From: Candidatus Kaiserbacteria bacterium
GTDB taxonomy: Bacteria > Patescibacteriota > Minisyncoccia > Phycocordibacterales > UBA918
NCBI GenBank assembly: GCA_031430855.1
Contig: JANPCG010000013.1
Coordinates: 99,781-163,780 of the forward strand
DNA length: 64,000 nt
Reading direction: 5' to 3'
Shown here: positions 12,611-60,822 of the stretch, one piece after another
Numbering within the stretch: the first letter of the stretch is position 1
How the letters are laid out: each line of letters starts with the position of its first letter
The notes under the pieces: model-generated
Seen by the model: the letters and a program-made list of their open reading frames with translations, nothing else
Databases searched by the model: none
What the model was told of the DNA's origin: nothing
Made by a program: the position numbers and the translations under genes

Positions 12611-12620
12611 CTTTGCTCGG

Positions 12621-35195: not shown

Positions 35196-35269
35196 CTTCT
35201 TATTTTAACTATATTTTCAATAAAATTGGTTCGAGTCAAAGATGCAAATTGGTCTGGTATACTTTTTGT

Positions 35270-36193: not shown

Positions 36194-36543
36194 TGGTGCG
36201 AATAGTCATAAGATTCGTCCAGGACCGTCCTAGGCGAAACTTTCCTAGCATATCGCTCAATTACCGTCGAGATGTGAAGATAAAAGTATAAGTGATAGGC
36301 CTTGCAGGTCTCAACCTCCCACAGTTCTAGCTCAAGGAAGCCAGTCCTTAGCATAGATTATCCTGTAAAGGGTGATCTTGTCTTAAGGCTACTTGAAGCA
36401 TCTTTATTGGGAGAGTCCTAGGCAAAGTATGCAAAAGTGCTGGCTGATGACGCCATTTAAAGGTATTATTAAATTGCGCCTATTATTGGACTCTAAACGG
36501 AAGTGTTTGTGTCAAGTGAACTAGTATAGATATTTTTGATAGT

Positions 36544-38049: not shown

Positions 38050-38054
38050 AGACT

Positions 38055-39927: not shown

Positions 39928-41182
39928 TTTAAATCTTAAAAAAGATGTTACAGTTGTTACGTCTCTATACCATAGCCCATTCGATTTGAACTTGCTGTAC
40001 TTAATTCTATTGGGTAAGACTGGAATACATGTAAATATTATTCTAGATGACATAGATAGTCTGGGTTTAAACAAAAGTAAACCACGAGATGTATACACGG
40101 TAGATACGAAATTTCAATATAGTAAAACTGCTCGCTCTAATCTAAGGCCGCTGACTTTTTTACTCCCCAATCATTTATTTGGCGATCTTACCAAGTCAAA
40201 CTTTAAGGCTCTCGATGAAACGTTATCTTTGGTTAAGTTGAAGCAGATATTTGGTGGATCCTTGAACCTGGAATCGATGATACAAAAGTTCACTACTGTC
40301 TTTGGCCAATCGTCAATCGTAGGTCCTGATAAAGCTTTTGGTTTCTGTGAAGTTGACCAGGAATTTATTAACTCAATACAAAAACAAACTCAAAAGGTAT
40401 TAGATTTAATTGTTGAAAATAACTTTTGTGATAACAAAATTTTTGAACGACATAAAAAAATTTTTGCAATCAGACCCTTGAAAGGGGAATTGATAGTTAG
40501 TTATTACTTGAAGTTTTTGGAAAATATTATTGAAATTTTTGACCTACCTAACATTACAATCTCAAAAATGACCTCCTTTGGAAAAAAAAATATTAATCTT
40601 TACAATGATTTTTTGTCTAATCCCAATTTCAGGGATGTATATCAAGAAGCTTTAGTAATTGATGGCAACAAGAGTGAAGGTGACCTACCGTTTTATCTCA
40701 TTGATGAAAAAGACGGAAATAGAATGCTGGTAGTTACTAATGAATGTACAGAAAGCGATTCGTACTTTCTTAGCCCAAAAGTTCTTATGTTGAACAACTT
40801 TATAAATTTAGTTTTGCCTTTCGATGCTCATTCTAAGCAAAATGTTCAAGCTCGGGAAGTGATGTATAAGTCTGGTTTAGTGAACTGTAGCCAGATATTT
40901 TTAAATGACAATTGGCTCAACTATTTAGAAAAGTTTGATATAAAAATTGGACACTATTCAGCCGAGTTCTTTGATAAGAAATTCTGTAAGAAATTAGCGA
41001 TAAATGAAGAAAATCTTGCAGTGCTCACAACTTCTGAAAAAGACAATTTGAGAAACTGGTTTATTGACAGTACTAAAAGTTCAATTGCTCATTTGAAATA
41101 CCCAATACTATTCCTGGTTATTTTTGGTGATGATATTTTCTGTAGAAATCCAGAATCTCTAGATTTCTATGAACTTGGTTAG
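39920..41182 (+). CDS. hypothetical protein
   Basis: ORF, no motif recognised. Confidence 0.4.
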   Translation: MYNLNLKKDVTVVTSLYHSPFDLNLLYLILLGKTGIHVNIILDDIDSLGLNKSKPRDVYTVDTKFQYSKTARSNLRPLTFLLPNHLFGDLTKSNFKALDETLSLVKLKQIFGGSLNLESMIQKFTTVFGQSSIVGPDKAFGFCEVDQEFINSIQKQTQKVLDLIVENNFCDNKIFERHKKIFAIRPLKGELIVSYYLKFLENIIEIFDLPNITISKMTSFGKKNINLYNDFLSNPNFRDVYQEALVIDGNKSEGDLPFYLIDEKDGNRMLVVTNECTESDSYFLSPKVLMLNNFINLVLPFDAHSKQNVQAREVMYKSGLVNCSQIFLNDNWLNYLEKFDIKIGHYSAEFFDKKFCKKLAINEENLAVLTTSEKDNLRNWFIDSTKSSIAHLKYPILFLVIFGDDIFCRNPESLDFYELG

Positions 41183-41185
41183 GGT

Positions 41186-42097
41186 TTATTTATAAACGTA
41201 CTGAATACTTTTATTTTCTGATAATCGAGCTAGACCACTGTACGAAAGAGTTAGTATAATTTTTTCATTATAAATATGAATATTTTTACTGAGTTCAAAT
41301 AGTGAATGATCTGAGGTTTGGTTAAGTATTCTATTTTGATTAGGCAAAAAAGAATCTTCATCAAATTTTGTATATCCACCTGCGACAAGATATTGTCTCC
41401 CTCCCAATCTCTTTAAAATCTGTATAGATGCTGAGAAGTTATCTTTGGATAACGATAATAGATTAGAATTTATATCAGCGTATGTTCCTAAAAAAATCGC
41501 TTCACCAACTCTTAGTTCAATCTTAGTGCCTGATCGAAAATTAATCATATCTATTGAGGGTATAAGATTAGAGCTTCCAAGTGAGACGGTGGTTACATGA
41601 ATGCCATTTCGACTAAATCTATCAACCATTTCTTTCCAAGCATAAAAATACTCGCTTATCGAGAAGTCTTTCTTAAAACACCCGACATTACTTGCTAGTA
41701 TAACTTGTGATAAACCCAACAACTTAAGTTTGATAGTTAGCTTATTTATATCTTGTAAGTCCACTCCTTCACGATCGTCCATTAGGTTCATAAAAATAAT
41801 TTGTGTGTTTCTGCTCTTACTATTTAAAGCGTCAATTGAGTCAATGATTTCTGTTGCACCATATTCTTGATTCGCATTAAAACCTGCAGGAAACCAAATA
41901 TTTTTATACCGCAAAGTCGTAATGTTTTTTTCTTTCAAATCATAAAACAAATCATGTTCTTTAGTGAACGAGGGTAAGTATTCTGTGAGGTCAATTGATT
42001 TTGTAACTACACGCAATGAAACCCTTTTTTCATTCAAAAAAGATTTAATCTTATAAAAATTATCCGTTACACCCTTGTCGTTGACAATCAATTCCAT
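41186..42097 (-). CDS. putative PLP-dependent alanine-racemase-fold (fold-type III) enzyme / amino-acid racemase-like
   Basis: weak: N-terminal LRVVTKS resembles the PLP-lysine region of alanine-racemase-domain proteins; context next to ddl. Confidence 0.3.
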   Translation of the reverse strand: MELIVNDKGVTDNFYKIKSFLNEKRVSLRVVTKSIDLTEYLPSFTKEHDLFYDLKEKNITTLRYKNIWFPAGFNANQEYGATEIIDSIDALNSKSRNTQIIFMNLMDDREGVDLQDINKLTIKLKLLGLSQVILASNVGCFKKDFSISEYFYAWKEMVDRFSRNGIHVTTVSLGSSNLIPSIDMINFRSGTKIELRVGEAIFLGTYADINSNLLSLSKDNFSASIQILKRLGGRQYLVAGGYTKFDEDSFLPNQNRILNQTSDHSLFELSKNIHIYNEKIILTLSYSGLARLSENKSIQYVYK

Positions 42098-42123
42098 TTA
42101 GAGTATTAATTATACAACAAACT

Positions 42124-43116
42124 ATGAAAAAACATAGACTAGTTGTAATTTTTGGTGGCGTATCGAAAGAACATGACGTTTCGCTTATGTCTGCAAAGAA
42201 TTTTTATTATCAAACCAGTAGTGTCTTTGATATTGGACTCATATATATATCTAAAGAAGGTGGGTGGTATATCATGGGTAGTGTTGAAGATGTTGACGAT
42301 CTCACTTTGTTCAATGAGAATCAAGAATCCTGTCTAGATTTACTCCATTCGGCAGATTATGTCTTTCCGATAGTACACGGAAACCAGGGCGAGGACGGTC
42401 AAATTAGCGGCTTTCTTGAATTGATGGGGGTTAAAAATCTTTGCACTGATACTGAATCATCATCTGTTTGCTTTAACAAAAAACTCACAAAAGTCATTGC
42501 ACAAAACAAAAATATTCCAGTTGTGTCATACAAAGCAATGCGAAAGGAGGATGTCTCAGATATGAGCAAATCTTTTCAAGACCTTGAAGCAAGGTTTGGT
42601 GCACCATTTATAATTAAACCAAATCGATCAGGTTCTTCATTTGGTGTCAGTAAGGCTTCTAATGTTGAGAGTTTTGAACACGCAGTTCATGAAGCTTTTA
42701 AATATGATTCCGAAATTATCATTGAAAAATATATTTCAGGTCGAGAGTTATCGTGTGTTATTCTGGGAAACCCAGATAAATATTTAATTACTGGAATTGG
42801 TGAGGACGACACAAAAGGAGATTTTAACACCTATGAAGTTAAGTATTTTTCTGAAAAAGCGGAGTTAATCATACCAGCAAACATTGATCAATGCGTTACA
42901 AAACAAATACAAGAATATTCTGTAACCTTAATGAAAGAACTTAATATTAACGGGTTTGCTAGATATGACTTCTTCCTAAGTGGAGATGATGTATATCTAA
43001 ATGAAATAAACTCATGTCCAGGTATGACAAACCACAGTCTTTTTCCACTTCTTTTGAGTCATAGTCACATCACACTTGCCGATACTGTTAAATTTTTGAT
43101 AGAGAACTATGGATAG
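42124..43116 (+). CDS. ddl: D-alanine--D-alanine ligase family (ATP-grasp)
   Basis: colinear with DdlB: FPIVHGNQGEDGQISGFLELMGV, IIKPNRSGSSFGVSK, EIIIEKYISGRE, LNEINSCPGMTNHSLFP. Confidence 0.85.
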   Translation: MKKHRLVVIFGGVSKEHDVSLMSAKNFYYQTSSVFDIGLIYISKEGGWYIMGSVEDVDDLTLFNENQESCLDLLHSADYVFPIVHGNQGEDGQISGFLELMGVKNLCTDTESSSVCFNKKLTKVIAQNKNIPVVSYKAMRKEDVSDMSKSFQDLEARFGAPFIIKPNRSGSSFGVSKASNVESFEHAVHEAFKYDSEIIIEKYISGRELSCVILGNPDKYLITGIGEDDTKGDFNTYEVKYFSEKAELIIPANIDQCVTKQIQEYSVTLMKELNINGFARYDFFLSGDDVYLNEINSCPGMTNHSLFPLLLSHSHITLADTVKFLIENYG

Positions 43117-44353
43117 GCTATTTTTACGAATTTACGAATTCTTGGCGCTAAGAATCCTCGAGAAATTTAAACCTCTCATAGTTGCGGTTACAGGTACTGT
43201 TGGCAAGACCACAACGAAAGATGCAATATACAATCTGCTATCGAAAGAAATTGATGTTCGTGTTGATAGGTCACCTAAAAGTTACAATTCTGATTTTGGT
43301 GTGCCTGTATCGATTTTTTTAGTAAAAGAGTCAAAGGGTGATATGGTTTCAAAATTCAGAGATTTATTACAAGGCCTCGCAACCTATTTTGGAAATAATT
43401 ACCCAGATATATTGATACTTGAGATTGGAACAAACAGTCCAGGTGACATGAAGAGGATTGCTTCTTGGCTAAAGATTGATATCTTGATTTATACACTTAT
43501 TTCAGACGAATCACCGCATCTTGATACATTTAAAAGTCCTGCTTTGTATTTTGAGGAGAAGATTTCTTTATTGAAGGCAATAAAAAATAATGGCACGTTA
43601 TTGGTAAATACAACAGATGACAAAACAAAGTTCATAGTGAGTGCCGTGCCAGAAAACGTTCGGGTGGAGCTGTATACTCCCAAATCTCTAAAGATTACCA
43701 CAGAGTTTAAATTCGTAGTGCAAAATGGTCAAATAGTTTCTGTATTAGCCGATGCTAGTAGTGATCTACAGGTACAATTTATTAGATGTTTTGGAGTACA
43801 GCATCAAAATGCGTTGCAAATTGCAGTGCATGTTTACAAAACTATTTTTAAAAAACCACCTAACAATTCTATATCCTTGAAGTACGCTTCTGCACCTGGT
43901 CGAATGAATTTATTATTAGGTAAAAACGGCTCATATATTGTTGATGATAGTTTCAATAGCTCTCCTCCTGCGCTTATTAATGCAATTCACGAGACCGCTC
44001 ACGCCTTTGAGCACTTAAAGAAAATTGCTGTTATTGGGGACATGCTAGGTTTAGATACCCGAGAGAAGGTCAATAGAAGAGAAATTTGCCGTTTACTTTC
44101 AAAGAAATATGATACAATCTTGTTTGTTGGCAGTACTTTTAAAGTTGAGGATGTTGAAACAAATGAAGAAAAATATTTATTCTTTACTAATCATGAGTCA
44201 GCCATGCGTGTTCTAATAAACCAAAAATTAGCTAACACAGTGATACTCTTCAAAGGTGCTCAATCGTCACGTTTAGAGAAAATTATTGAGCAGATACTAA
44301 AAAATCCGTTAGATAAAAAATTTCTCTCACGACAAGAAAACTACTGGAATTAG
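43109..44353 (+). CDS. Mur ligase family protein (MurF or CapB-like amide ligase)
   Basis: P-loop IVAVTGTVGKTTTKDAI typical of Mur ligases; overlaps ddl stop (operon). Confidence 0.65.
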   Translation: MDRLFLRIYEFLALRILEKFKPLIVAVTGTVGKTTTKDAIYNLLSKEIDVRVDRSPKSYNSDFGVPVSIFLVKESKGDMVSKFRDLLQGLATYFGNNYPDILILEIGTNSPGDMKRIASWLKIDILIYTLISDESPHLDTFKSPALYFEEKISLLKAIKNNGTLLVNTTDDKTKFIVSAVPENVRVELYTPKSLKITTEFKFVVQNGQIVSVLADASSDLQVQFIRCFGVQHQNALQIAVHVYKTIFKKPPNNSISLKYASAPGRMNLLLGKNGSYIVDDSFNSSPPALINAIHETAHAFEHLKKIAVIGDMLGLDTREKVNRREICRLLSKKYDTILFVGSTFKVEDVETNEEKYLFFTNHESAMRVLINQKLANTVILFKGAQSSRLEKIIEQILKNPLDKKFLSRQENYWN

Positions 44354-44382
44354 GAGCGGTCAGTAATTAATAAAACTACAAC

Positions 44383-45576
44383 ATGAATAAGCTAAATAAA
44401 TCACAATCACAATCATTTAAAGAAAATGGGTTTATCTTAATCGAAAATGCTATTCCCGAAAATGTGATTGTGAATCAATTAGAAGCACTACATGCTTTGT
44501 TTGGTCTCAATGGGCATGAGAAGGCTGAGAGAGATTATTTTGCAACAAACGCAGTAAGTAAGAGCGATCCGGTACTTGATTTTATTGATGATGAAAACTT
44601 TTTCCCATACATCTTAGATCTATTGGGGCCATTCATTCAATTGTCATCATCGCATGTTTTGATTAGGCCGGGCGCAAAAAGTTTTGACCTTCCTATGCAT
44701 GTAGATGGTGGAGCATGTATGGAATCAGTCATACCTGAAGTCGCACATTTTCCGCTACAAGTTAAAGTACAAATCTTTTTGACTGATGTCATAAATGAAG
44801 ACTCAGGCAATTTTGTCCTGGTCCCCGGGTCACATAAAAATAAGTTTCCGTTTTACGATAAAAACTCACTCCTTTCAATGAAAGGAAATTCTGTTCAACT
44901 AGTGGCAAAAAGAGGTGATATTGCTATATTTACCAATAATCTATGGCACAGTGCCGCTGTAAATAACTCACAGAATGACAGAAAGAGTATCATCCTAGGA
45001 TACAGTCAGATGTTTTTGAGGTCTTTTGACTATGTGCAGGCTGATGAAAAAACGCTCAATCGAGCAACGGCGAGACAAAAGCTGCTGCTTGGAGATATTG
45101 GATATATACAGCCTCAAGCGAAGTATTACCCTCCGAGCGATTTTATCACTAAAATTGAAAATATATCTTCTTTTGAGATTGAAGATTTATTGAAAAAAGA
45201 CTGGTCAATTATAAATGGAAACCAATTTCATGGTAACGGTAATAGTGAGAGTTTTAACTTCGAGATGATAAAAGAGGAGGGGGATGATTTTGTTACATGG
45301 GAGCAAGTAGAGTCTCGACTTCCCATATTGGAAGAAAAAAACAGTAAAACATTTGCTACATACGCTGACGCTAAGTTCCTTGTTGATAATCAAGAGTTAA
45401 TTCCATCTTCTCTTACAGAAAAGAATCTTATTTTTGCGGGAACTAAGTTTAAGTCAAGTACAGGCCATCATCACTACTCAGTTTTAAGCTTTGTGAATGG
45501 AAAATGGAAAATGGGTATGTATTGGATACTTTTTGAGTTTCATGAAAACGAATACATGGCATTAAAACCTCTCTAG
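44383..45576 (+). CDS. phytanoyl-CoA dioxygenase (PhyH) family Fe(II)/2-oxoglutarate oxygenase
   Basis: HVDGG (HxD) ... LWHSA (second His) spacing typical of PhyH-like enzymes. Confidence 0.55.
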   Translation: MNKLNKSQSQSFKENGFILIENAIPENVIVNQLEALHALFGLNGHEKAERDYFATNAVSKSDPVLDFIDDENFFPYILDLLGPFIQLSSSHVLIRPGAKSFDLPMHVDGGACMESVIPEVAHFPLQVKVQIFLTDVINEDSGNFVLVPGSHKNKFPFYDKNSLLSMKGNSVQLVAKRGDIAIFTNNLWHSAAVNNSQNDRKSIILGYSQMFLRSFDYVQADEKTLNRATARQKLLLGDIGYIQPQAKYYPPSDFITKIENISSFEIEDLLKKDWSIINGNQFHGNGNSESFNFEMIKEEGDDFVTWEQVESRLPILEEKNSKTFATYADAKFLVDNQELIPSSLTEKNLIFAGTKFKSSTGHHHYSVLSFVNGKWKMGMYWILFEFHENEYMALKPL

Positions 45577-46569
45577 GATGAGTGTATAGATGTTTTCTAA
45601 TGCTAATAAGTACTCACTTGTAATCTCGAAATTATTTTCCATATCCGGTGAGGAATTGTACTCAATTACTGTAAGGTCATTCACGCTAGAAACCTGGTCT
45701 AATTCTTTGGAAATAAACAGATCAAGACCAACCAGGTCAAGTCCTGTTGCAGAAGTCACATATCTGAGTATCTCGTCAAGAACTTTATTCTGATTTCCAA
45801 CAAAGATAGAAGTGCCACCCTTAGACAGGTTTTTTCCAAAAGAGAGTGGGATTCGCACTTTCTCTCCAGCTACGCTTGTCAAAGCGAGGTTCTCTCGCTC
45901 CAAGATAAACTGTACTTGTGAATCGTTTATATTCAACTGTGTATTTCTATTCTTTGATTCGAACTCTGTCTGTTTGTCTGTAATTAAATCTTTGATTGAG
46001 CGTCGACCGTCACCAACAATACTTGACTGAATTCGTTCATAAAACTGTAAGATTTCACCTTTGAATAATACAACCCTGTACTCTCTTGACTCTATATACT
46101 CCTGAACCACGAAGTCAATTTTTTTTTCTGTAAATAAATTAACAATTTTTTTAAATTCTAATGGATTGCTCACCTTGAATAAATTATTACCGCCTGTGCC
46201 TGTGACGGGTTTTATTATGAACCGTGTACCCTTTTCAGAAAAGATACCTGCCACATCATTTATTTCACTGGGAGTGAGTTCTTTCGGAGTAGGGATCTTC
46301 GCATCTTGTAATAGTACTGAAGAAAGCTTCTTGTTGCCTGCTATAAATGATGAAGCTTCATTATTTACATTTAGAGTTCCGTACGCAAAGAAGAACCTTT
46401 TGTTACCAATTTTTATGTAACCCGTATCCTGTTCTCCAGGCAGTAAATTAAACCCATACTTCTTCTTTGAAGAGATTTCTTTTAAGATGTTAGTCACTAT
46501 AGATTTTGATGTATTCATGCTGTTACTTGTATAATAATACATTATTTTGTAAAAAACTCGTATAATCAA
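45562..46569 (-). CDS. ATP-grasp ligase (RimK / glutathione-synthetase-like)
   Basis: FIIKPVTGTGGNNLFKV nucleotide-binding loop and EYIESREYRVVLFKGE block. Confidence 0.6.
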   Translation of the reverse strand: MIIRVFYKIMYYYTSNSMNTSKSIVTNILKEISSKKKYGFNLLPGEQDTGYIKIGNKRFFFAYGTLNVNNEASSFIAGNKKLSSVLLQDAKIPTPKELTPSEINDVAGIFSEKGTRFIIKPVTGTGGNNLFKVSNPLEFKKIVNLFTEKKIDFVVQEYIESREYRVVLFKGEILQFYERIQSSIVGDGRRSIKDLITDKQTEFESKNRNTQLNINDSQVQFILERENLALTSVAGEKVRIPLSFGKNLSKGGTSIFVGNQNKVLDEILRYVTSATGLDLVGLDLFISKELDQVSSVNDLTVIEYNSSPDMENNFEITSEYLLALENIYTLILERF

Positions 46570-46917
46570 ACCCTAGGTTCAGTAATTAAGAATAAGTACC
46601 GCCTAGGCGTATACCCTGTAAACTTACTAGACTTGACCGTATATGGCTCTATCTCAAGATGCCAGCGAGCAAAGAAGAGCGCCCGTCAGGCTCTTTTCTG
46701 TTTTTGATTTGATAGCGGGATAAGAAATGAGAAAGTAAGCAGTCCGGGGGACAATTTGACCTGCCGGGGTACTGAGCGGATCATTTTAATGAGCGAAGCG
46801 ATTATAAAATAAACGATACCTGACCGAGTCCAAGTCTGGCAGCAACAGTTTTGAGGTTTATAATTTAGTACTTTTTTTGACAGGAGAATTACACCCGAAC
46901 TTTGATATACTTCTGGT

Positions 46918-47112
46918 ATGAATCCAATTTTCCTTTTTAAAGAGCTCGGTGTACTAAAGGGAAACAAAACAGTACTAGATGTCGGAGCAAGAGACGGAAG
47001 CATTTCTTCAAGATTTATAGAAATGGGAATGAGCGTTGATGCAATCGACATAAACGAACCCGAAATCAAGATAGAAGAAGTCAATTTTGAAACTATTTCA
47101 GTCGGCAAATGA
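46918..47112 (+). pseudogene. fragment of a SAM-methyltransferase (motif I only)
   Basis: 64 aa ORF VLDVGARDGSISSRF...SVDAIDINE with no remainder of the enzyme; lies in a gene-poor patch. Confidence 0.3.
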
Positions 47113-47363
47113 GGATTCGTCATATTAAAGACAAGATCCAAAGTGCGATTAATTGTACCAATAATAATCTGCGTAGCTGCGGATAGAATACTATGTCACG
47201 GTATTTATCGTGCCATGGAAGCTCTACAATTTTCCATACAGGTGAGGACTGTCAGCGTTTCGAAAAGTGTGGCGCGGACTTAACACTTGTTGCTATTATA
47301 AAACAACAAACAGTATTGAAGCTGTAGCTTTGAGTCTCTAAAACAGCCACAACTTTACTATAA

Positions 47364-47825
47364 TTACGTTAGTCTACTTCTTAAATTAGACACAAATAAA
47401 TTAAAATCTTCAAAAACTTCTACGCCGTATCTATTGCAGGTGATATCCACGTTTCCTTTTCTCCAGAATTCGTTTGTACAAAACACCGCTATCTCTTTCT
47501 TGGCAGCTAACGCTAACCCTAGCTCAAGCAGTGTTATCGGTGATTTTGTATTTGCGTCGAAATAAAAGCAAATTATGTCAGCTGTTTCTAAAATACCCTC
47601 AAGTTCCCAATTAACTTGATCAAAAAATGGTTTGTTTTGTTTGGTCTGCTCCCAAGAAGAGTCCCAGTCATCGCGTCTCGGATTTAGTACCGTAACATCC
47701 AAATCTCCCAGTTCTTGGATTAAGGCTTTCTGCCAATCCTCAGCAGTACCCATTTCGATACTGCCAGCAAAGAAGATTGTTTTATTAGTTTTAATTACCA
47801 TTTCTGGTGGATTTTTAACAATCAT
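47364..47825 (-). CDS. nucleoside 2-deoxyribosyltransferase family protein (DNPH1/Rcl/MilB-like nucleotide N-glycosidase)
   Basis: TIFFAGSIEMG N-terminal motif and ITLLELGLALAAKK with the conserved Glu, as in Rcl/MilB. Confidence 0.6.
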   Translation of the reverse strand: MIVKNPPEMVIKTNKTIFFAGSIEMGTAEDWQKALIQELGDLDVTVLNPRRDDWDSSWEQTKQNKPFFDQVNWELEGILETADIICFYFDANTKSPITLLELGLALAAKKEIAVFCTNEFWRKGNVDITCNRYGVEVFEDFNLFVSNLRSRLT

Positions 47826-47881
47826 AGCTTTTAGATAGTAGCATATATTTTGGTAATACAGTGATATAATAGAGATTAATT

Positions 47882-49975
47882 ATGATTGAGACCATCAAAA
47901 ACCAGGTTATAAAACTAGGTGTACCGGCTCGCGACTTTGATAGCGATAAAATTAGATTACCCAGTCTTATCTACATGTTCTACTGGATAGAAAGGCTAAA
48001 AAACAACAAAGAAGAACAGAACGTAGTGCTAAATAATGTACTCTCTTATCTAAATGTAGAAAATGATATCTTGAATGATATATTAGAAATCGCATACGAT
48101 AACGATATTGCGCTTTTTTGTGAGCGGTATGTTTTTGAAGAGATGATTCAAGTTAACACGGTCGATTTGGTAATTGAAAAAAGTAGCGGTGCTCACGACA
48201 AAGAAATATTGTTATACAAAAGGGACGCCTTCCCACAGGGGCTAGCCTTGCCGGGCGGAATAGTAAATGAGTCTGATGAAACCAATGAGCTTGGAGTTGA
48301 TGGAAAAATATTTTCGGCACTCCGAGTCGGGGCAGAGAAAGTGCTGTGTTTATCTAAAGAAGATATCGTCTACGAAAAGCGTACAGATCAAAGCAGTAAA
48401 GAGTATTTTTCTGTTTCAAACCTAAACAAAACTAAAAGCTTGACTATACGAGCTAAAGAAATTTATGGGTATGTTTATAATGAAAATATAAAAAATGTCA
48501 TACGACCCTCAGATCCTAGACATATCGCCAACACGGTCGGTTATACGTGTGAATTAATATGTTCTGATTTGCCGCAAGATGAATCATACATTTGGGTTAG
48601 TAAAGAAAGGCTTTTAAAACCAGGTGAGATAAAACTAAGTTTTAATCATCACAAAGAAATAATATTTCACCTATTAGCGAAAAGTAACCTGGACAGAGAA
48701 TTAGATTTTACCGAAGAAGAATTTATTAGAAATATAATTCAAAATCCGTTAGATGAGTACCGTAACTTTAAAAAGAGATTTTTAGAAAATAATAATAATC
48801 AAAACACTTCTTTTCCAGAATTATTTACCGTTGTAAATAAATTATTAACAATGCTCTTCACTGAAGAGATCAATAGTTTGTGCGAAGAAGTTAACGTGCT
48901 CAATGGGATGCGAGACAAGGTGGCAATATCACTCAGGCATACATCTTTGAAAAATAGAGTGTTTTGCCCGTACGCTCCAACCATCAGATCAATTTTTGAA
49001 TCGATTACTTTTTTTGATGTTGTCGCGAGACACAAGAAGAATTTTTATCACGGCCTACCGACCGATAAAATTATTGAGCATAACCCGAGAGAAAAGGAGT
49101 ATTCTTCTTATCATATGTATCGGTATAAATATCGGTTAGATGATATTTTTAGTATGATACCGAGCGAAATTATTATACCTACGTTCGCGTCATTGTCTGC
49201 CACTGATCTGATGAAGATTAGGGGTATTCCGGTACGATTTGTAGGACTCGCTACTGATTTCTTGTATGTAGATGAATTTGAACAGTCTCCCGAAGAGTTC
49301 TTGATGCATGACTGCAATCACTCTTGGAGAATGATACAAGAAGATAATCAGGCCTGTATAGATATGTCACTGAGTAAAGATCTTCTGATAGAAGAATCCA
49401 ATGCATTTATACAAGAATACCTGCCGAGTATAAAAATAAATAAAACAGATACTGAAGAAGAACGAGAAATAAAAAAAATAAAGAAAATAATTTTATTTGA
49501 AATTGTACACGAAGACGCGAGGCCGTTTCTCCGAAAGATAATCGGTGATTATATTCAAGTCAAAGAAGGTGGAGAAGTGAGATTTGAATTGCCGAGAATA
49601 GATCAAGAGACTGGATATATGGATGTGGTCGATACCCTCGATACTGGTATAAGTACATTGTCCTATGTGAGGAATAAGCTTCAGCATGGATTTTACGATC
49701 AAGTTGATTCACAGCTACCCCAAATTGTAAGTCCTAAATACAGAAAATCAGAGTATATAGCTAAAGCAGCCTACCAAATGCTTCGGGAACTGAACGCTGA
49801 TGCTTCCAGCGTTGCGGACCTTGATATTGATGGACTTCCTACTTATGAGTGGTTGTTGCGGAGAGTTTGTTCAGTTGGTCCGGACAATATTCATAACCCT
49901 AACGAAGTCGACGATATCCTGAATCAGTATTCTGATGGAGTAGATAAATTGAATCCCAAGCGATATCAGGCATAG
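47882..49975 (+). CDS. large hypothetical protein (697 aa)
   Basis: ORF; no confident motif. Confidence 0.45.
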   Translation: MIETIKNQVIKLGVPARDFDSDKIRLPSLIYMFYWIERLKNNKEEQNVVLNNVLSYLNVENDILNDILEIAYDNDIALFCERYVFEEMIQVNTVDLVIEKSSGAHDKEILLYKRDAFPQGLALPGGIVNESDETNELGVDGKIFSALRVGAEKVLCLSKEDIVYEKRTDQSSKEYFSVSNLNKTKSLTIRAKEIYGYVYNENIKNVIRPSDPRHIANTVGYTCELICSDLPQDESYIWVSKERLLKPGEIKLSFNHHKEIIFHLLAKSNLDRELDFTEEEFIRNIIQNPLDEYRNFKKRFLENNNNQNTSFPELFTVVNKLLTMLFTEEINSLCEEVNVLNGMRDKVAISLRHTSLKNRVFCPYAPTIRSIFESITFFDVVARHKKNFYHGLPTDKIIEHNPREKEYSSYHMYRYKYRLDDIFSMIPSEIIIPTFASLSATDLMKIRGIPVRFVGLATDFLYVDEFEQSPEEFLMHDCNHSWRMIQEDNQACIDMSLSKDLLIEESNAFIQEYLPSIKINKTDTEEEREIKKIKKIILFEIVHEDARPFLRKIIGDYIQVKEGGEVRFELPRIDQETGYMDVVDTLDTGISTLSYVRNKLQHGFYDQVDSQLPQIVSPKYRKSEYIAKAAYQMLRELNADASSVADLDIDGLPTYEWLLRRVCSVGPDNIHNPNEVDDILNQYSDGVDKLNPKRYQA

Positions 49976-49981
49976 TTATCT

Positions 49982-50004
49982 TTGCCTAGGACTCTCCTAG
50001 GCAA
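49982..50004. repeat. 23-bp perfect palindrome TTGCCTAGGACTCTCCTAGGCAA (island repeat family copy)
   Basis: identical 21-bp core also at 51803..51823; degenerate copies near 36207 and 36410. Confidence 0.7.
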
Positions 50005-50095
50005 GGCTTTGTTAAATGGGTTTTAGCATCGTCCCGGACAGCAAAATCAAATGATACTGGTGCATAATCAGTAAAAACTATGTTTAAATATAAGT

Positions 50096-50542
50096 ATGAA
50101 AAAAATACTTTATTATGTCCCTACATTATTTAGTGGAAGAATGCACCGTTTAAATCTTCTTAAGAATTGGCTGTTTATGATAGTTGGTTTTGTGGTATTT
50201 GTCTTATCTTTAGGTGAGTATCTTCCCGATGGGTCCTACTATGGAACTTTTGGAACACCAGATTTCTCATTTGCTACGGCCTTTTTCTTATTTTTATGTC
50301 AGACACTCTACATTTTTTGGATAATTTTGATGTTATCAATCCTGACTCGAAGGTGGCATGATATTGGCTATGGTGGGTGGGTATTGCTTATTCTTGTACC
50401 AATGAGCTTCGTCCCTTTAGTATTTTTATTTGTCCTTTTCTTGCGGGGAGATGAGAAAGTGAACCGTTACGGTGAATCTCCATCGGAGAGTTGGTCTTTA
50501 GAGGATTTTGTTAGATTAAAATACTTTAAAAACGTAAGTTAA
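50096..50542 (+). CDS. DUF805-like inner membrane protein
   Basis: RRWHDIGYGGWVLLIL matches the RRxHD..xxGW signature of DUF805 (YhaH/YhaI-like). Confidence 0.55.
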   Translation: MKKILYYVPTLFSGRMHRLNLLKNWLFMIVGFVVFVLSLGEYLPDGSYYGTFGTPDFSFATAFFLFLCQTLYIFWIILMLSILTRRWHDIGYGGWVLLILVPMSFVPLVFLFVLFLRGDEKVNRYGESPSESWSLEDFVRLKYFKNVS

Positions 50543-50687
50543 ATTGAAGTGATTTAAACTTGAATAACTTGTCTTCTAAAATTAAATCCTAGGGTACCTC
50601 TAGATATCCACCCAAAGCCCACTATTTGAGACGAAAAATTGTTTCGGATCCTAGACCCGTTGTATATTGAAGTGATAAGATAATACA

Positions 50688-51734
50688 ATGCAAGAATCTA
50701 TTTCTCGGAGGGTACAATTAGCTATTCAAGATAACGTGTTCCCTGGGTGTGTCGTTGGTGTCGTACATAAAAACAGAGAAAGACTAATCTTGCCATATGG
50801 TACTTTTACCTATGACGCTCTTTCTCCAAGGGTACAAGAGGATTCTTTATACGACACTGCTTCATTAACAAAGTCTATACCAACAGCCAGTCTCGCATTA
50901 ATGCTGATTGATCAGGGTAAGTTACATATCCAAGATAAGCTCATTGATTATGTTCCTGAATTTAATAATGGAGATAGAGAGGCTGTTCTGATAAAACATT
51001 TATTAACCTACACTCTCGACGGGTATGGTTTAGCTTCACAAAAACAAAAGACAGCAGACGAGTTATTACATACCATTCTCACCCAGGATTTTGAAAAGCG
51101 ACCGGGTACTGTTTTTAAATACACCAATATACCAGCGGCCTTGCTTGGATTAGTAATCGAAAAAATTATGGGAAGTACGCTCGATGCGTTGGCTGACGAA
51201 TATTTTTTTACACCGCTCAAAATGAGCCGAACGACTTTCTACCCAGAAAATTTTCCGCTCGAAGAGGTTGTACCAACCGAGATTGATGACTGGAGAGGTT
51301 TGGTGCAAGGAATCGTTCATGATGAGAGCGCGTATATTTTTAAGAAGAAAGGCAGGATTATGGGTCATGCTGGGGTGTTTTCAACTGCCGGTGATATTCT
51401 AAATTTCTTAGAAATGCTACTGAATGAAGGAACTTTCGGTGACCGAACGTACTTTTCAAGAGAGATAGTAAAACTGATGGGCACCAATCAGATTGCTGAG
51501 CTGAATGATTTTACTGGCCTTGGTTGGGAATTGAACCAGCCAAGATTCCTAGGAAAAAACGGTACTGAACACACCTTTGCAAAAACTGGCTTTACTGGAA
51601 CTCTTTGTGTTTGTGACGTGGAAAAAGAAGTTGCGTATGTAATCTTGTCGAACCGAATTTATCCAAAGCGCCCAATAGATTCAGTAGCGATTAACTCTTT
51701 ACGGGCTGATTTGGGTGAAATCATACTAAAATAG
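50688..51734 (+). CDS. serine hydrolase, beta-lactamase class C / PBP4*-like / esterase family
   Basis: SxxK (ASLTKS), YxN (YTN), KTG (FAKTGFTG) motifs in order. Confidence 0.75.
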   Translation: MQESISRRVQLAIQDNVFPGCVVGVVHKNRERLILPYGTFTYDALSPRVQEDSLYDTASLTKSIPTASLALMLIDQGKLHIQDKLIDYVPEFNNGDREAVLIKHLLTYTLDGYGLASQKQKTADELLHTILTQDFEKRPGTVFKYTNIPAALLGLVIEKIMGSTLDALADEYFFTPLKMSRTTFYPENFPLEEVVPTEIDDWRGLVQGIVHDESAYIFKKKGRIMGHAGVFSTAGDILNFLEMLLNEGTFGDRTYFSREIVKLMGTNQIAELNDFTGLGWELNQPRFLGKNGTEHTFAKTGFTGTLCVCDVEKEVAYVILSNRIYPKRPIDSVAINSLRADLGEIILK

Positions 51735-51802
51735 TTAGTTCTGTACAGATAAACTGGTAAGTCCTGGGTGCCGTTTTGGAAAAATGGGTTATGTGACCAA
51801 GA

Positions 51803-51823
51803 TTCTTTCTTCGCCTAGGACTC
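51803..51823. repeat. second copy of the GCCTAGGACTCTCCTAGGCAA palindrome
   Basis: identical to 49984..50004. Confidence 0.7.
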
Positions 51824-51934
51824 TCCTAGGCAAAGCTTCCAGCAATTCTCGCTTCTCAGTCATTGGTCTGTCTCGCTGTATGTGTTTAATGTAGCCGTTT
51901 GGGGATCGGTTCTATCAGACTCTTCTTTTTGACT

Positions 51935-52513
51935 CTACTCTGCTGTGAATAAGTAGCGATTACAGTTGTTGTTCTTGTAGCTCGGTGGGTAGTCTTCTTC
52001 GTCAAAGGCTGCTCCTAAAATTCGTTCAGTTCCACTCCATCCGATTGTTGGGTATATAGGTTCAATGTAAGATCTTACTGTATGTAATGTGTAGCTACTA
52101 AGTACTTCGTTTAATTTATTTAGGTGGGGGTTGGCTATAGCAAATGCGATAAGTTCAGATAGAGTTAATGGGCGATATCCGATTCTCGTCATGTTAGCCA
52201 ACATCTTATTACGACCATCGAGATTAGTTGCTCCGATGTTTAGTATGTAAACCCAAAAAGATGAAGATGTCGGAGCTGTCCAAGGAATTTCCCTCAGTAC
52301 CCCCTCTGTGAAGCTTGCCGAACCCTGGTCTGCATCTTTAAATAAATTTACTGCTGATTCATATGTCTCTAGTAAATTTAGGTTTTTATCATTTATTTTA
52401 ATATTAACTACCCCTCCATCTATTGAAACATCTAGTCTGATTGGAATATCCGCATTTTCGCATTTTTTAATAAAATCAATAATTTGCGGTAGTTTGGTGT
52501 TAATTTTTTGCAT
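51935..52513 (-). CDS. hypothetical protein
   Basis: ORF only. Confidence 0.4.
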   Translation of the reverse strand: MQKINTKLPQIIDFIKKCENADIPIRLDVSIDGGVVNIKINDKNLNLLETYESAVNLFKDADQGSASFTEGVLREIPWTAPTSSSFWVYILNIGATNLDGRNKMLANMTRIGYRPLTLSELIAFAIANPHLNKLNEVLSSYTLHTVRSYIEPIYPTIGWSGTERILGAAFDEEDYPPSYKNNNCNRYLFTAE

Positions 52514-53034
52514 ACATTTTTGATGGTTTAAATGGTGTCACAATCATAAGATGAAATTAGATATCCAAACCCCAACTTGGTTAAATTATGTGTTACGAAG
52601 AGATATAAAGCAATCTAAGTAATGTAACCATCTAGACTTTCTTTAAGTCAACTTGCAAATAGAGGCATAACTTGCCAGTATTTAAGTGTGCTTCAAAAGG
52701 TTGTATACAAAGAATCTTAGGTTGGGTTAGTAATTAGTGTGATGCTAATTAGTTGCCTTAGAAAAAGCTAAGACAAGGTTTGGTTTATTTGCATCAACGT
52801 GTGGGACTGATATTTTGTACCACAGGCTTTGTCTAAGAGAGCTGTAGGTAAAGCCTGTGGTACGTAGTGCCGCAAATGTTCATCGATGCGTATTGCAATT
52901 TGTGGTTCCAAAGCGAAATAGTTTTTTATGCTGATAAAAATAATGAAAAACTAGATGTAGCTGCAACTGATATACTGCTACCTACGTACGGTAAATATAG
53001 TGAATACAACGTTAGAAATTAATTATATAAACAA

Positions 53035-53446: not shown

Positions 53447-53693
53447 ACCTGAAAGAAATCCTAGGGTATCCATAGGAACTCACGAGTCTATTTTTATTGA
53501 TACAGAAACGTTTGTAGCAATCCAAATATCTTTATGATCATGGTGAGTCTGTCGTCAAATTCTTGCAGACCTAGAATGGCCAACTTCCTTAGGTCGCTGC
53601 CTTTACTTTCTCGCTATTTTTAGTAGTCTGGGCAATAGATTGGCGGTGTATACCGCTGAATGTATAACAGTCACATATCAAACGGAGAACGTG

Positions 53694-54665
53694 ATGAGTA
53701 AAAAACAGCTCCCACCACCTCCGGGATTTCGGAGGCAAAAGAAGACGTTTGGCGCGGGAACGATACGCTATGTGTACCCATTTTCCGATACCGAACCGGG
53801 GAAAGAGGCCTCTTCAATCCACGAAGCCTATCTGAGTGAATATCAAGAGATGTGGCAGCGTTCGAAGCTGCGGCGCCTCGCCATCAAGCGCGGTAAAGAA
53901 GCGCTCGGTGAAGAAGGGCTATATCTTGTGACGCTGCCTGAAATGGATAAGGAGGCTTTGCGTCAGGTGTACGCTAAGCGTCAGCACGAGGCGTTTCAGA
54001 TTGGCATCAATCTGCTGAGTTATGACTATCCAATCTTCATGCGCCGTAACCCGCTTGATCTCGTGTTTGAACACCTGCGGAACAACCCACGATACTACCT
54101 TAAGCTCGATCTGAAGGGTGCATTTGAGTCAGTCTATCCAGGCTTCCATCCGCGGTTTCCAGTGGTAACCAAGGAGGAGGGTGGGGAAGAAAGTGTGTGG
54201 ACCGGATGGCCCTTTTTCCATCCGGGAACACATGGCTTGATTCAAGGAGCGCCGGCGTCGCCGTTAATCTTTGAGCAAGCCTGTAAGGCGGTTGGTCTTG
54301 ATCAGCTCATTCGTGAGTCTGCCCTGGCCGCCGGGGCGACGGTGACTCGGTACGTTGACGATATTGTCTTCTCACGGCGTGAGCCGTTTGGAGACAGGTT
54401 CTGCCAGACTCTTCGCAGTCGGATCGAGGGTTTAGGATTCGTCTTGAATGTAGAGAAAAGCCGGCAGTTCGATACGCGATGGCACGCCATCGAGTTTCTC
54501 GGGGTGCGACTCTTTCGGAATCGCATTACGCTACGACCGTCTTTCTTTGATCGTCTCAAGGAAAAAGGTATCGTTACGGATGGACACCTGTCATGGATTG
54601 ATCAGGTTAACCAGCTGAAGGGTATGTTGGACCTACGGCGCAAAAAAGTCTGGCGCTACCAGTAA
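53694..54665 (+). CDS. reverse transcriptase, small (about 323 aa) retron/Abi/DRT-like, no maturase or endonuclease domain
   Basis: RT motifs: QGAPASPLIFE (QGxxxSP, motif 4), RYVDDIVFS (YxDD, motif 5), LNVEKSRQF...FLGVRL (motifs 6-7); GGAGAA SD before ATG 53694. Confidence 0.8.
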   Translation: MSKKQLPPPPGFRRQKKTFGAGTIRYVYPFSDTEPGKEASSIHEAYLSEYQEMWQRSKLRRLAIKRGKEALGEEGLYLVTLPEMDKEALRQVYAKRQHEAFQIGINLLSYDYPIFMRRNPLDLVFEHLRNNPRYYLKLDLKGAFESVYPGFHPRFPVVTKEEGGEESVWTGWPFFHPGTHGLIQGAPASPLIFEQACKAVGLDQLIRESALAAGATVTRYVDDIVFSRREPFGDRFCQTLRSRIEGLGFVLNVEKSRQFDTRWHAIEFLGVRLFRNRITLRPSFFDRLKEKGIVTDGHLSWIDQVNQLKGMLDLRRKKVWRYQ

Positions 54666-55081
54666 CGGTTTGACCATTTGAACCGTTACTGGTAGTGTTC
54701 CGGCAGGGAGGTTCGGGACGGGATCTTTTACTGCAAACTACCATTTTGGCTGTAAGCGAAGCTTACAGTTGCCCCAATGACCGAAGGGGTGCGTATGTTT
54801 GGTCGGAGACGTCGGTTTGATTGGGATATATCAGACGACTGCCTCGCTCACCTTCCTGGCCCATGCTTGGGTAACGCTGGAAAGTGAATAACGACGCCTC
54901 GTCACGGACGCTCACTCCGTTCCGTCCGAGGCAGATCCCGCGCTTGGTTCCATTTCGGGGTTCCCGATGCTCTGAACCGAGACGATGGGCTGCTGCTACC
55001 TGTCCCACGAAGAACCTCCCCGCAGTCCGCTGTTCCTTTGAAGAAATTTGCGCCCCTACCTAGTACGGGGGGCATTTTTTT
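54666..55081 (+). ncRNA. candidate structured RT-associated RNA / 3' UTR (multiple stable hairpins, ends in terminator)
   Basis: 12-bp perfect stem CCAGTAACGGTT...AACCGTTACTGG spanning the RT stop, 8-bp hairpin CTGTAAGC-gaa-GCTTACAG, nested GCCTCG/CGGACG stems near 54890-54935, terminator at the 3' end; no convincing protein ORF. Confidence 0.3.
55049..55081 (+). terminator. rho-independent terminator GCGCCCC-tacctagtac-GGGGGGC + T7
   Basis: read from sequence. Confidence 0.6.
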
Positions 55082-55116
55082 ATATAAAAAAGCTCTCATT
55101 AAAAATTTAAACAAAC

Positions 55117-55189
55117 TAATAAAAAACCAGAGCCGTGAGGCTCTGGGTAATCTTTATGGGTGTTATTCAGACCAGCTTCAGGGCAGATA
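55117..55189. repeat. 73-bp direct repeat copy 1 (contains gene 3' end + terminator CCAGAGCC-gtga-GGCTCTGG)
   Basis: identical to 55914..55986. Confidence 0.85.
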
Positions 55190-55606
55190 GATTTTCTCCG
55201 AATGCTGCCGGAGTGCGCGGAACACCGCTTGGTTCAAGTCTGGCCTGATGTAGCCATAGAAACCGGTGAGGGTCTGCATGTGCTCTGGCAGCCCCTTGGC
55301 ATCTCCAGTCACCATCAGCGCCAAGACATCCGTGCCAAATTCGGAAGTGCGTCTTGGGTGTTTGTCCAAGAACATACGCGCATGCGCAAGTTCATGGGCA
55401 ATCACGTGGATGAGCCGATAGCGGGGGGTCTGGATGACGGCTGTTTTGCTCTCCACAAACAACAAGGTGCCGCTCAGGGGGTGGTTGTTTCTGGTAAAGT
55501 CCATCTCCATTGCTGCTACCGCCGCGGGAGACAACCCCTTGGCGTTATATCTGACGCGGGTGCAAAAGTTTGAGGGAAGCGCGAACGTTTCCATCAGGCT
55601 ACACAC
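55178..55606 (-). CDS. small zinc metallopeptidase (HExxH; ImmA/IrrE- or SprT-like)
   Basis: HVIAHELAHARMF HExxH motif; 142 aa; its last codons and terminator lie in repeat copy 1. Confidence 0.55.
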   Translation of the reverse strand: MCSLMETFALPSNFCTRVRYNAKGLSPAAVAAMEMDFTRNNHPLSGTLLFVESKTAVIQTPRYRLIHVIAHELAHARMFLDKHPRRTSEFGTDVLALMVTGDAKGLPEHMQTLTGFYGYIRPDLNQAVFRALRQHSEKIYLP

Positions 55607-55618
55607 TGCACTCGCCAG

Positions 55619-55765
55619 ATCACCGTCGTCCAGCTGTTTTATTTAAGTAGCTGTAGGCGGTCAGAAAAGAACGGCGGAGGTGGGCATATGAAACGCACAC
55701 CTCGCGCACAATGGTTTCAACATCAGCTCTCTTGATGATGAATTTGTCGTCGACAGTATACGCCA
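55619..55765 (-). CDS. 49 aa hypothetical protein upstream of the metallopeptidase (MAYTVDDKFIIKRADVETIVREV...)
   Basis: not in ORF track (shorter than 60 aa); AGGAGG 7 nt upstream of ATG; co-oriented and 12 nt from the peptidase start. Confidence 0.35.
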
Positions 55766-55913
55766 TTTGTCTTCCTCCTATTTTTTAAAATAATATCATA
55801 TTATTCATAAATGTCAAGCATTAATAGCACGATTAGTGCGTGTTCTAAGAATCATTCTTCCTAAAATATTTAAAGGTGTCGGCTAAGGTAGGGGGGAGAA
55901 ATCGGTAAACTTA

Positions 55914-55986
55914 AATAAAAAACCAGAGCCGTGAGGCTCTGGGTAATCTTTATGGGTGTTATTCAGACCAGCTTCAGGGCAGATAG
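55914..55986. repeat. 73-bp direct repeat copy 2 (htpX 3' end + terminator)
   Basis: identical to 55117..55189. Confidence 0.85.
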
Positions 55987-57036
55987 TGAGCGTCTGCCCA
56001 GGTCTTTGACTTGGCGCAAGCGTAGCGCCAGACGTCGGTCGACCATTCGTGGGTGAGACATCAGCCACTCTGAAGTGCGGCGATATAGCTTCCGCTTTTC
56101 TTCAGTGTTGTAGATATTTTTGAAGAACTTATCGAGGGCCGACGAGAGGTCGTCTGCATACTCGGGGCCGGCGAGGTCAATCGCCACCGCGTCCGCCCGG
56201 TACTCGGTCGCCCGAGAGTAAGCGTGTGAAGCAAGAACCGAGAGTATGGTTCCCACAAGCGAGGTGGTGAACGCGAACACAATCGGCGCCGTGATGTCGA
56301 TTGATAGCTGGAGTCCGTAGAGGAGTAGTCCAGCCACGACACCAGCGATGATGGCGTCTTCGGTGCGTGACAAGAAGGCGTAGCAGATGATTGTCATGAG
56401 GACGAAGTTCCCGACAAACCACGGGAACAAATGGAAGAACGTTAGGACCAGTGCGACCAGCATCACCATAAACTGCACCACCGCCAAGAGACGCAGTCCA
56501 CCGAGCACGAGGTGTTTGATGAGACTTGTCTGTGTATCCATCAAAGCCACGTGACCCACCTCATGAGCCAGGACGGCACGAATTTCATCACGCGTGAATC
56601 GTTCGTATCCGCCCTGCCAGTAGATTTTGCTTCCAGAGAGGAAACTTGTCGACGTGGCGGCACGTGGTCGGTTGCCTGGCTCATAGATTAAGAGTGGTGT
56701 TGGAATGCCCGCCTTTTGGGCGAGTTCTGCGAGCATCTGTTCCATGAACGCAGGCGGATCTACCTTGTGGCCACGAAGATTTTGGTAGTGGCCGACCTCG
56801 AAGGCAATCAAGGTCCCGATTGCCGTGAACAGGTAGATTTCAATCCAGCTGTCAACGGTGAAGCGCAAAACCGTGCTGGAAACGTGAGCCCAGTGATTTT
56901 CGATCCACAGTTGGGCCAGGTGTGGTGTTGCGACCGCAATTGAAATGCTGAGCAGAAACCAGCACGATGCTTGGATGCGCCAGCGACGGTCGGTCGCCAC
57001 ATCGTGGTGAGGCAGATTTTTTCGACGAACAAACAT
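55963..57036 (-). CDS. htpX: M48-family membrane zinc metalloprotease (HtpX-like)
   Basis: VLAHEVGHVALMD HExxH in a polytopic membrane protein; start set at MFVRRKN with GGGAGGGA SD (ORF track extends to 57240). Confidence 0.7.
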   Translation of the reverse strand: MFVRRKNLPHHDVATDRRWRIQASCWFLLSISIAVATPHLAQLWIENHWAHVSSTVLRFTVDSWIEIYLFTAIGTLIAFEVGHYQNLRGHKVDPPAFMEQMLAELAQKAGIPTPLLIYEPGNRPRAATSTSFLSGSKIYWQGGYERFTRDEIRAVLAHEVGHVALMDTQTSLIKHLVLGGLRLLAVVQFMVMLVALVLTFFHLFPWFVGNFVLMTIICYAFLSRTEDAIIAGVVAGLLLYGLQLSIDITAPIVFAFTTSLVGTILSVLASHAYSRATEYRADAVAIDLAGPEYADDLSSALDKFFKNIYNTEEKRKLYRRTSEWLMSHPRMVDRRLALRLRQVKDLGRRSLSALKLV

Positions 57037-60745: not shown

Positions 60746-60822
60746 AAGTCAAATGTATTTGATAGACTTTTTTGCATTATCTTGTAGTATTTAAAATTGA
60801 AATGTTCAGGGGGGGTAGAGTC

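Follow-up and report, generated by a model that had tools for sequence, protein, structure and literature searches.

A peptidase gene between two copies of an htpX gene end and terminator in a Candidatus Kaiserbacteria genome: a probable illegitimate insertion with target duplication

Integrative elements are classically recognised by a direct repeat that consists of the 3′ end of a target gene, the gene itself being left intact, and transposons and insertion sequences (IS) likewise duplicate target sequence directly on both sides of the insert. Integron gene cassettes are single-gene units that measure about 0.8 kb and lie between similar repeats, and in naturally transformable bacteria foreign DNA is reportedly also inserted by illegitimate or homology-facilitated illegitimate recombination, including microhomology-mediated template-switch insertions. 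Here, a locus with likenesses to each of these systems is described from a 64,000-nt stretch of the genome of a Candidatus Kaiserbacteria bacterium (GenBank assembly GCA_031430855.1, contig JANPCG010000013.1, positions 99,781 to 163,780; the whole stretch is referred to as the window, and positions are counted from its first letter). Two exact 73-nt direct repeats enclose a gene for a small putative zinc peptidase at this locus, which is bordered by a gene for an HtpX-like membrane metallopeptidase on one side and by the non-coding region behind a reverse transcriptase (RT) gene on the other. It is probable that the 723 bp between the repeats are a foreign insert with one promoter-equipped peptidase gene, gained through a single microhomology-mediated illegitimate insertion with duplication of the target.

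With the known events of illegitimate recombination the locus shares a short foreign segment without mobility genes, at least one junction within a microhomology of 4–7 nt, the restriction to a single event in one lineage and an empty site in a relative. However, recipient DNA is usually lost or replaced in such events, whereas here 73 bp were duplicated that amount to a complete terminator and gene end. As with transposons and IS, the insert is flanked on both sides by directly duplicated target sequence, but the 73 bp contrast with the usual 2–15 bp, and there are neither terminal inverted repeats nor a transposase. An IS or transposon could thus be ruled out, since no inverted repeats were found at the ends of the insert and the peptidase gene is its sole gene, there being no gene for a transposase or integrase in the 723 bp. 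In addition, no integrase, recombinase or transposase family is found amongst the Pfam hits recorded for genes in the 10 kb to either side (contig L002, see below). An integron cassette was rejected because the inserted gene has its own promoter, because the repeat is a plain terminator repeat with neither the R″/L″–L′/R′ architecture of attC nor RYYYAAC or GTTRRRY cores, and because no integrase is on record within these 10 kb; neither IntI nor attI was found.

The repeat copies lie at 55118–55190 (copy 1) and 55914–55986 (copy 2), have a spacing of 796 nt, and read CTATCTGCCCTGAAGCTGGTCTGAATAACACCCATAAAGATTACCCAGAGCCTCACGGCTCTGGTTTTTTATT on the minus strand. An earlier, sequence-only reading of the window had correctly reported two identical 73-bp repeats but had placed copy 1 one base off, at 55117–55189. 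Matches to the 73-nt repeat occurred in none of 100 dinucleotide shuffles of the sequence, and a third copy was not found in the window even with up to three mismatches allowed. Both copies contain, on the minus strand, the hairpin CCAGAGCC-TCAC-GGCTCTGG followed by TTTTTTATT, i.e., an 8-bp stem with six GC pairs, a 4-nt loop and a T-run, classified as terminator-like by a terminator scan (55127–55146 in copy 1, 55923–55942 in copy 2). As GC-rich hairpins with a U-run directly behind a stop codon, both can be regarded as predicted Rho-independent terminators. The distal boundary of the repeat is located 9 nt past the stem. Copy 2, the native copy, is contiguous with the htpX-like open reading frame (ORF), of which it contains the last 24 nt (21 coding nt for LSALKLV and the stop codon at 55963–55965), followed by the 3′ untranslated region, the hairpin and the T-run. 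In copy 1, the duplicated copy, it is the ORF with the HExxH motif that ends, with 13 nt reading (I)YLP-stop and a stop codon at 55178–55180. That two genes end in different frames inside the repeat had thus been recognised already from the letters, while the "roughly 17 coding nt" per copy given there stand only as a mean of the actual 24 and 13 nt.

The origin of the repeat becomes evident from comparison with related htpX-like genes. The gene in the window (55963–57036, minus strand) codes for a protein of 357 aa that matches the Pfam M48 model (PF01435) with E = 7e-17 and the NCBIfam HtpX models well below their own cut-offs. Three orthologues from the set P0007–P0011, with 87, 81 and 75% identity, share the C-terminus RRSL(S/A)A(L/F)KLV*, and behind each of their genes the identical hairpin ACCCAGAGCCTCACGGCTCTGG plus T-run is present in a single copy; an orthologue with 62% identity has a diverged version of the hairpin. 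Since the orthologues share both the C-terminus and a single hairpin, the repeat corresponds to the 3′ end that the htpX-like gene has natively, terminator included, and at the level of sequence it is thereby shown to be target-derived, comprising 21 coding nt, stop codon, 8-bp hairpin and T-run of that gene.

In line with this, the contig of the 87% orthologue (L012), which has the same upstream neighbour coding for a nicotinamide mononucleotide (NMN) transporter, continues from the htpX terminator directly into the RT-side flank without any cassette, and its positions 3270–3367 are homologous to positions 54945–55117 of the window, i.e., to the DNA beyond copy 1. L012 is evidently the empty site of the insertion, and because it shows this order, the RT-side flank must have adjoined htpX before the insertion took place. 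Six further contigs (L011 and L013–L017) have a single terminator, no insert and other downstream genes; the insert-specific DNA is missing from these as well as from L012 and is present in L002–L006. The sequence-only reading had suggested a search of relatives for an empty site, and the search yielded just this, a single hairpin behind orthologous htpX-like genes and, in L012, an unoccupied site with matching distal flank. Its proposal of a cassette inserted at the htpX terminator together with a duplication of that terminator is borne out by the single copies in the orthologues and by L012. The repeat is thus native to the target and present once at the unoccupied site, as is generally expected of an insertion with target-site duplication. 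A mobile terminator module, also considered there, finds no counterpart in the data, as the hairpin occurs only behind htpX-like genes and at this one duplication in the 35 loci fetched.

Two side observations concern the terminator itself. The hairpin with its loop, about 26 nt (L011 9994, L012 3248, L013 2561, window 55923), is identical even though the proteins encoded upstream are only 75–87% identical, and the DNA just past the terminator is different in every lineage (L011, L012, L013, L035). This suggests a constrained hairpin element beside a putative insertion hotspot.

The insert-specific DNA (55191–55913) comprises, in minus-strand order, a 96-nt leader, a predicted strong promoter at 55790–55817 (TTGACA, 16-nt spacer, TATTAT, extended TG; 11 of 12 consensus positions), an AGGAGG ribosome-binding site at 55774–55779 and most of the peptidase gene, which starts with ATG at 55764–55766 and extends to 55178. 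Its G + C content of 54% compares with 55% in htpX. The insert lacks a terminator of its own, and the last codons of the gene as well as the terminator are borrowed from the duplicated copy. Closer inspection of the gene end allows the first junction to be placed. In all 33 family members (see below) Tyr193 is invariant and is followed by Leu, Met, Ile or Val and then by the end of the protein or mostly by one or two more residues. The corresponding codons of the window, TAT CTG, lie inside the repeat and are also part of native htpX, which reads CTA TCT GCC in the window and CTA TCT GCA in L011. As a family-conserved Tyr-Leu is encoded within the repeat, and as a random fusion would rarely recreate it, the junction should lie inside the microhomology (C)TATCT(G). 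Most likely, the donor gene ended with ...ATC TAT CTN and was joined within the shared (C)TATCT(G). Behind Tyr-Leu, the inserted gene continues with Pro-stop, out of the htpX frame, and then with the duplicated terminator. At the opposite end, both the cassette and the native flank carry AGTTT at 0–2 nt from the repeat boundary, and when a 2-nt gap is included, the BLAST alignment of the repeat lengthens to 78 and 80 nt; AGTTT is therefore a possible second microhomology.

Taken together, the target-derived duplication, the microhomology at the junction, the lack of mobility machinery and the restriction to one event in one species-level lineage argue for a single illegitimate-recombination event, which would have acted on DNA taken up from another Patescibacterium. 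The preferred version is replicative template switching, where synthesis would have left the chromosome past the terminator, run through the foreign segment and returned into htpX at the microhomology; it is preferred because one step yields the duplication. Microhomology-mediated joining at a break with long staggered ends would be an alternative form with an equivalent outcome. Either way, the segment came to lie between two convergent terminators, that of htpX and that of the RT-associated non-coding region. The htpX gene would have retained its own C-terminus and terminator, while the new gene would be transcribed from its own sigma-70-type promoter up to the copied terminator, which might shield the convergent, structured RT-associated RNA from read-through. 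The two 73-bp repeats could later allow for a precise deletion of the cassette.

Other routes to the same structure have to be weighed against this one, starting with the reality of the repeat. The same order of repeat, insert and repeat is found in five independent assemblies with 99–99.97% identity to the window (L002–L006), namely one NCBI metagenome-assembled genome (MAG) and four metagenome contigs from the European Nucleotide Archive (ENA), which derive from different samples and include two metaSPAdes-type scaffolds and two MEGAHIT k141 contigs. As k = 141 exceeds the 73 nt of the repeat, the k141 contigs span it unambiguously. Two Logan k=31 unitigs (L001, L034) stop exactly k−1 = 30 nt into the repeat, which fits a real repeat because the de Bruijn graph must branch there if one is present. 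A collapsed or falsely duplicated repeat, named by the sequence-only reading as what could overturn it, has nothing in its favour apart from the perfect identity of the two copies; it is excluded by the five assemblies together with the breaks of both unitigs at the predicted node, and its probability is negligible. Moreover, in L003–L006 the htpX copy has CTG and not CTA at repeat position 3, a synonymous Leu codon, and the resulting match of 72 out of 73 positions is not expected from a duplication artefact. Amongst strains with at least 99% identity, no empty allele was seen. The 100% identity of the copies in the window and in L002 would also be in line with a Campbell-type single crossover, in which a circular or concatemeric DNA with the htpX 3′ end beside the peptidase gene recombined RecA-dependently with the chromosome within the 73 bp, and a crossover of circle and chromosome indeed gives exactly repeat, insert and repeat. 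However, it presupposes a prior illegitimate join of the htpX end and the peptidase gene, i.e., one added step, 73 bp are a short substrate for RecA, and no such precursor was present in the 35 loci, so that this scenario is unlikely.

The hypothesis that the repeats represent attL and attR of a minimal integrative cassette, cis-mobilisable in the manner of a cis-mobilisable element (CIME) as a 796-bp circle of insert and one repeat by a recombinase encoded elsewhere, draws on the facts that the repeat consists of the 3′ end of a target gene which is kept intact, that the DNA downstream of the htpX terminator varies by lineage, as it would at an insertion hotspot, and that the hairpin is identical amongst orthologues with 75–87% protein identity. 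It is nevertheless quite unlikely. Apart from the small size of the insert (0.7 kb) and the lack of integrase or recombinase hits in the neighbourhood, the stop and last codons of the cargo gene lie inside the repeat at the microhomology, which is typical of illegitimate joining and not of an element with complete genes. Also, homologues in other genomes have no such repeat, since flanking duplicated gene ends were found at none of 19 other loci, the window has no third repeat copy, and a scan of a viral contig collection found no family member. A third possibility is an RNA-mediated retro-insertion, where a nick behind the terminator primes the copying of the htpX mRNA into cDNA from its 3′ end, a template switch at CTATCTG leads to a foreign peptidase transcript and the cDNA is finally ligated, the RT being perhaps the adjacent retron-like one. 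In favour of this scenario, the distal boundary (...GGCTCTGGTTTTTTATT), 9 nt past the stem, is where an intrinsically terminated htpX RNA is expected to end, the other boundary is a microhomology as expected of template switching, and an RT gene and a structured non-coding RNA are located about 50–1500 nt away. However, both a complete promoter and the 96 nt ahead of it are present in the insert, although an mRNA copy from that promoter would lack them, the RT matches retron and group II intron RT models only weakly and has no detected endonuclease domain, and there is no second copy of the gene in the window or the related contigs fetched. The coincidence at the boundary is weak evidence, moreover, given that the spacer between the convergent terminators has only about 30 nt. 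While very improbable, this scenario, if true, would mean that a Patescibacterium had gained a cellular gene by target-primed retro-insertion, a bacterial counterpart to that of a long interspersed nuclear element (LINE).

Several points also weigh against the single illegitimate insertion favoured here. Its molecular mechanism is not observable from sequence, and a target duplication of 73 bp is far longer than classical transposon duplications and could be produced by other routes. No donor sequence could be found, and outside the species the closest homologue is 57% identical; for this reason the width of the microhomology had to be derived from protein conservation. The CTG in the htpX copy of L003–L006 may mean that the ancestral microhomology was shorter, or that gene conversion took place between the copies. 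Furthermore, the repeat ends distally just where the htpX transcript is expected to end, which a DNA-only model can explain only by chance or selection, and as no Pfam or NCBIfam model reaches its cut-off for the peptidase, its activity is predicted only.

With respect to gene content, the sequence-only reading had described the insert as a two-gene cassette of a 49-aa protein and an HExxH peptidase, reminiscent of ImmA/IrrE-Xre or toxin–antitoxin modules. Instead, the ORFs of 48 aa (55620–55766) and 142 aa (55178–55606) are the two parts of a single gene for a protein of 195 aa (55178–55766, minus strand). All 33 homologues of the 142-aa ORF are single proteins of 182–231 aa, mostly 190–205 aa, and the closest of them, P0001 (195 aa), matches the 142-aa ORF to 99% and has the supposed small protein as its N-terminus. 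Compared with L002 (GCA_043735715.1), which is 99.97% identical over 18.8 kb, the window has five differences: three single-nucleotide polymorphisms, the length of a G-run and one extra T at 55637–55640. The four T in this run (A4 on the coding strand) compare with three in the five related contigs and result in a +1 frameshift, as the comparison with L002 and the translations reveal; deleting the extra T joins MAYTV...SYLNK to QLDDGD...KIYLP* and yields P0001 exactly. In these five contigs the gene is intact, and the insert measures 722 bp as opposed to 723 bp in the window. The frameshift falls inside predicted helix 2 (residues 29–46), and the two pieces are therefore unlikely to be functional separately; neither the 48-aa nor the 142-aa product is on record in the protein collection. 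The gene of this window is thus either inactivated or mis-sequenced by one extra base. The likeness to ImmA/IrrE-Xre and toxin–antitoxin pairs is confined to a small HExxH protein with an apparent short ORF ahead of it, and a paired module is not what is found, there being one gene and no helix-turn-helix (HTH) or antitoxin partner.

The G-run that differs in length, at 60802–60808, has 7 nt in the window and 9 nt in L002, and in this region one VanZ-like gene of 123 aa is called in L003 as opposed to two shorter ORFs in L002. Either phase variation at this tract or a homopolymer error may account for the difference.

The peptidase belongs to a small and rare family, with 33 proteins in a collection of 5.8 billion sequences and 25 clusters amongst 1.84 billion representatives. 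All named carrier genomes are Patescibacteria (Saccharibacteria, Paceibacterota, Kaiserbacteria and Parcubacteria). Residues H124, E125, H128, E142 and D146 are invariant in the 33 sequences and form the motifs HELAH and EFATD, an HExxH...ExxxD pattern paralleled by HEVGH...EYRAD in the neighbouring HtpX-like protein and by the arrangement in M48/M56 peptidases. With HExxH and a downstream ExxxD helix, the protein has the predicted active site of a gluzincin of the M48/M56 type. Nevertheless, membership in peptidase family M48 had to be rejected, as the Pfam M48 model (PF01435) aligns to the HExxH helix only, with E = 0.08–0.2 and 12–13 bits against a gathering cut-off of 20.3, and ImmA/IrrE (Peptidase_M78) was rejected both by sequence and by fold. 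Searches of Pfam, NCBIfam, PADLOC and PHROGs assigned the peptidase to no family, the sequence search of the PDB returned only chance hits to ribosomal protein S17, and Foldseek against the PDB gave nothing significant. For the region, Rfam returned only a chance miRNA hit.

In a comparison with individual structures, the figures listed are highest for the minigluzincins projannalysin (8.4), proabylysin (7.5) and selecase (7.4), followed by BepA (6.0), Spartan (5.7), CapP (5.6), an M48 peptidase (5.3), BlaR1 (5.0) and IrrE/PprI (4.6). The modelled fold is closest to the catalytic core of minigluzincins and M48/M56 peptidases, with an N-terminal three-helix segment ahead of the core, and the predicted core corresponds to the zincin fold of roughly 100 residues known from projannalysin (4JIX), proabylysin (4JIU) and selecase (4QHF), the M48/M56 core being that of HtpX, Ste24, BepA and BlaR1. 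Minigluzincins have His as third zinc ligand (PMC6925264). In contrast, the protein described here likely uses the Glu of ExxxD, measures about 195 aa with the additional three-helix segment and, unlike minigluzincins and M48/M56 peptidases, belongs to a family found only in Patescibacteria. According to the model it resembles a soluble, mini-M48-like zinc metallopeptidase, filed neither under M48 nor under minigluzincins or ImmA/IrrE. The active-site cleft of proabylysin is blocked by the protein's own C-terminal tail, which inserts into it (PMC5557861). By analogy, the invariant C-terminal Tyr invites the hypothesis of a similar inhibition by the tail, residues 193–195 having a predicted local distance difference test (pLDDT) score of <50. 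No conserved partner gene is common to the lineages, each distinct lineage having different neighbours, which suggests that the peptidase works alone.

At some homologues (L007/L022, L029, L030) flanking repeats of 19–27 nt are present. They belong to an intergenic motif found throughout the lineage, AAAAGTTCNAACAYC.TCCCA, and since it also occurs at unrelated genes (L019 14, 456; L030 3520), target duplications and a general mobile cassette were rejected as explanations. In several Saccharibacteria-like contigs (L029 3121/3697/4450; L030 90/1067/3520; L019 14/456; L007 3033/3785), a fuller and conserved form of the motif of about 25 nt, AAAAGTTC(G/T/C)AACA(T/C)C.TCCCA..C, follows directly on terminator T-runs and precedes TTGACA −35 boxes by 5–15 nt. 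It resembles an element upstream of promoters that is shared across the lineage; the window shows no enrichment of it. The peptidase homologue in L023 lies between two identical 24-nt sequences in direct orientation, CGTGCGCCGGAGTGAGTGACTAAA (1750–1773 and 2763–2786), which are part of a longer palindromic structured element; a tRNA origin was rejected, as ARAGORN finds no tRNA there.

The RT on the other side of the insert (341 aa; region 53640–55085, plus strand) matches Pfam RVT_1 with E = 3.5e-13 and, weakly, retron and Drt2 models. Its stop codon is spanned by a perfect 15-bp inverted repeat (54656–54670/54681–54695), and about 400 nt of non-coding DNA behind it end in a terminator near 55040–55075. 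The fold of 54650–55085 is far better than that of shuffled sequences (z = −6.8), and the whole resembles an RT gene followed by a large structured RNA. The 3′ part of this region and the convergent terminator make up the native flank downstream of the htpX terminator (54945–55117), and the 3′ part is conserved in L012. The sequence-only reading had remarked on the position of the cassette between the RT locus and htpX; the adjacency is, however, incidental, as this flank adjoined htpX already prior to the insertion and homologues elsewhere have no RT neighbour.

Elsewhere in the window, two 31-nt hairpin elements (49979–50009 and 51808–51838; 94% alike, CTTYGCCTAGGA-CTC-TCCTAGGCAARG) bracket a two-gene block of a DUF805 gene and a beta-lactamase-family gene, and a weaker copy is present at 36212–36242. 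They may be the bounds of another insertion, as terminator-like hairpins, or an element of the repetitive extragenic palindromic (REP) type. The window is a compositional mosaic, with 32–38% G + C at 35000–53000 and 1–7000 and 45–55% elsewhere, and the 73-nt repeat locus is situated at the edge of one low-G + C block. Finally, a 39-nt direct repeat (12128–12166/12278–12316; 97% identical, 150 nt apart) is located in the intergenic region upstream of a tRNA-Trp gene (12619–12693).

As a trace of gene acquisition the locus is clean but ordinary; the event is of a known kind and changes no major concept. The peptidases constitute a small undescribed family that seems to have the M48/M56 catalytic core in soluble form, and structural biologists and peptidase specialists may find it useful. 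With respect to the genome, the inserted gene would have arrived ready to be expressed, with its own promoter, in a place between convergent terminators, and with stop codon and terminator supplied by a duplicated piece of the host. As the occupied and the empty site as well as both junctions can be read, the locus shows how a gene may be gained by a genome with few mobile elements, as in Patescibacteria (candidate phyla radiation, CPR).

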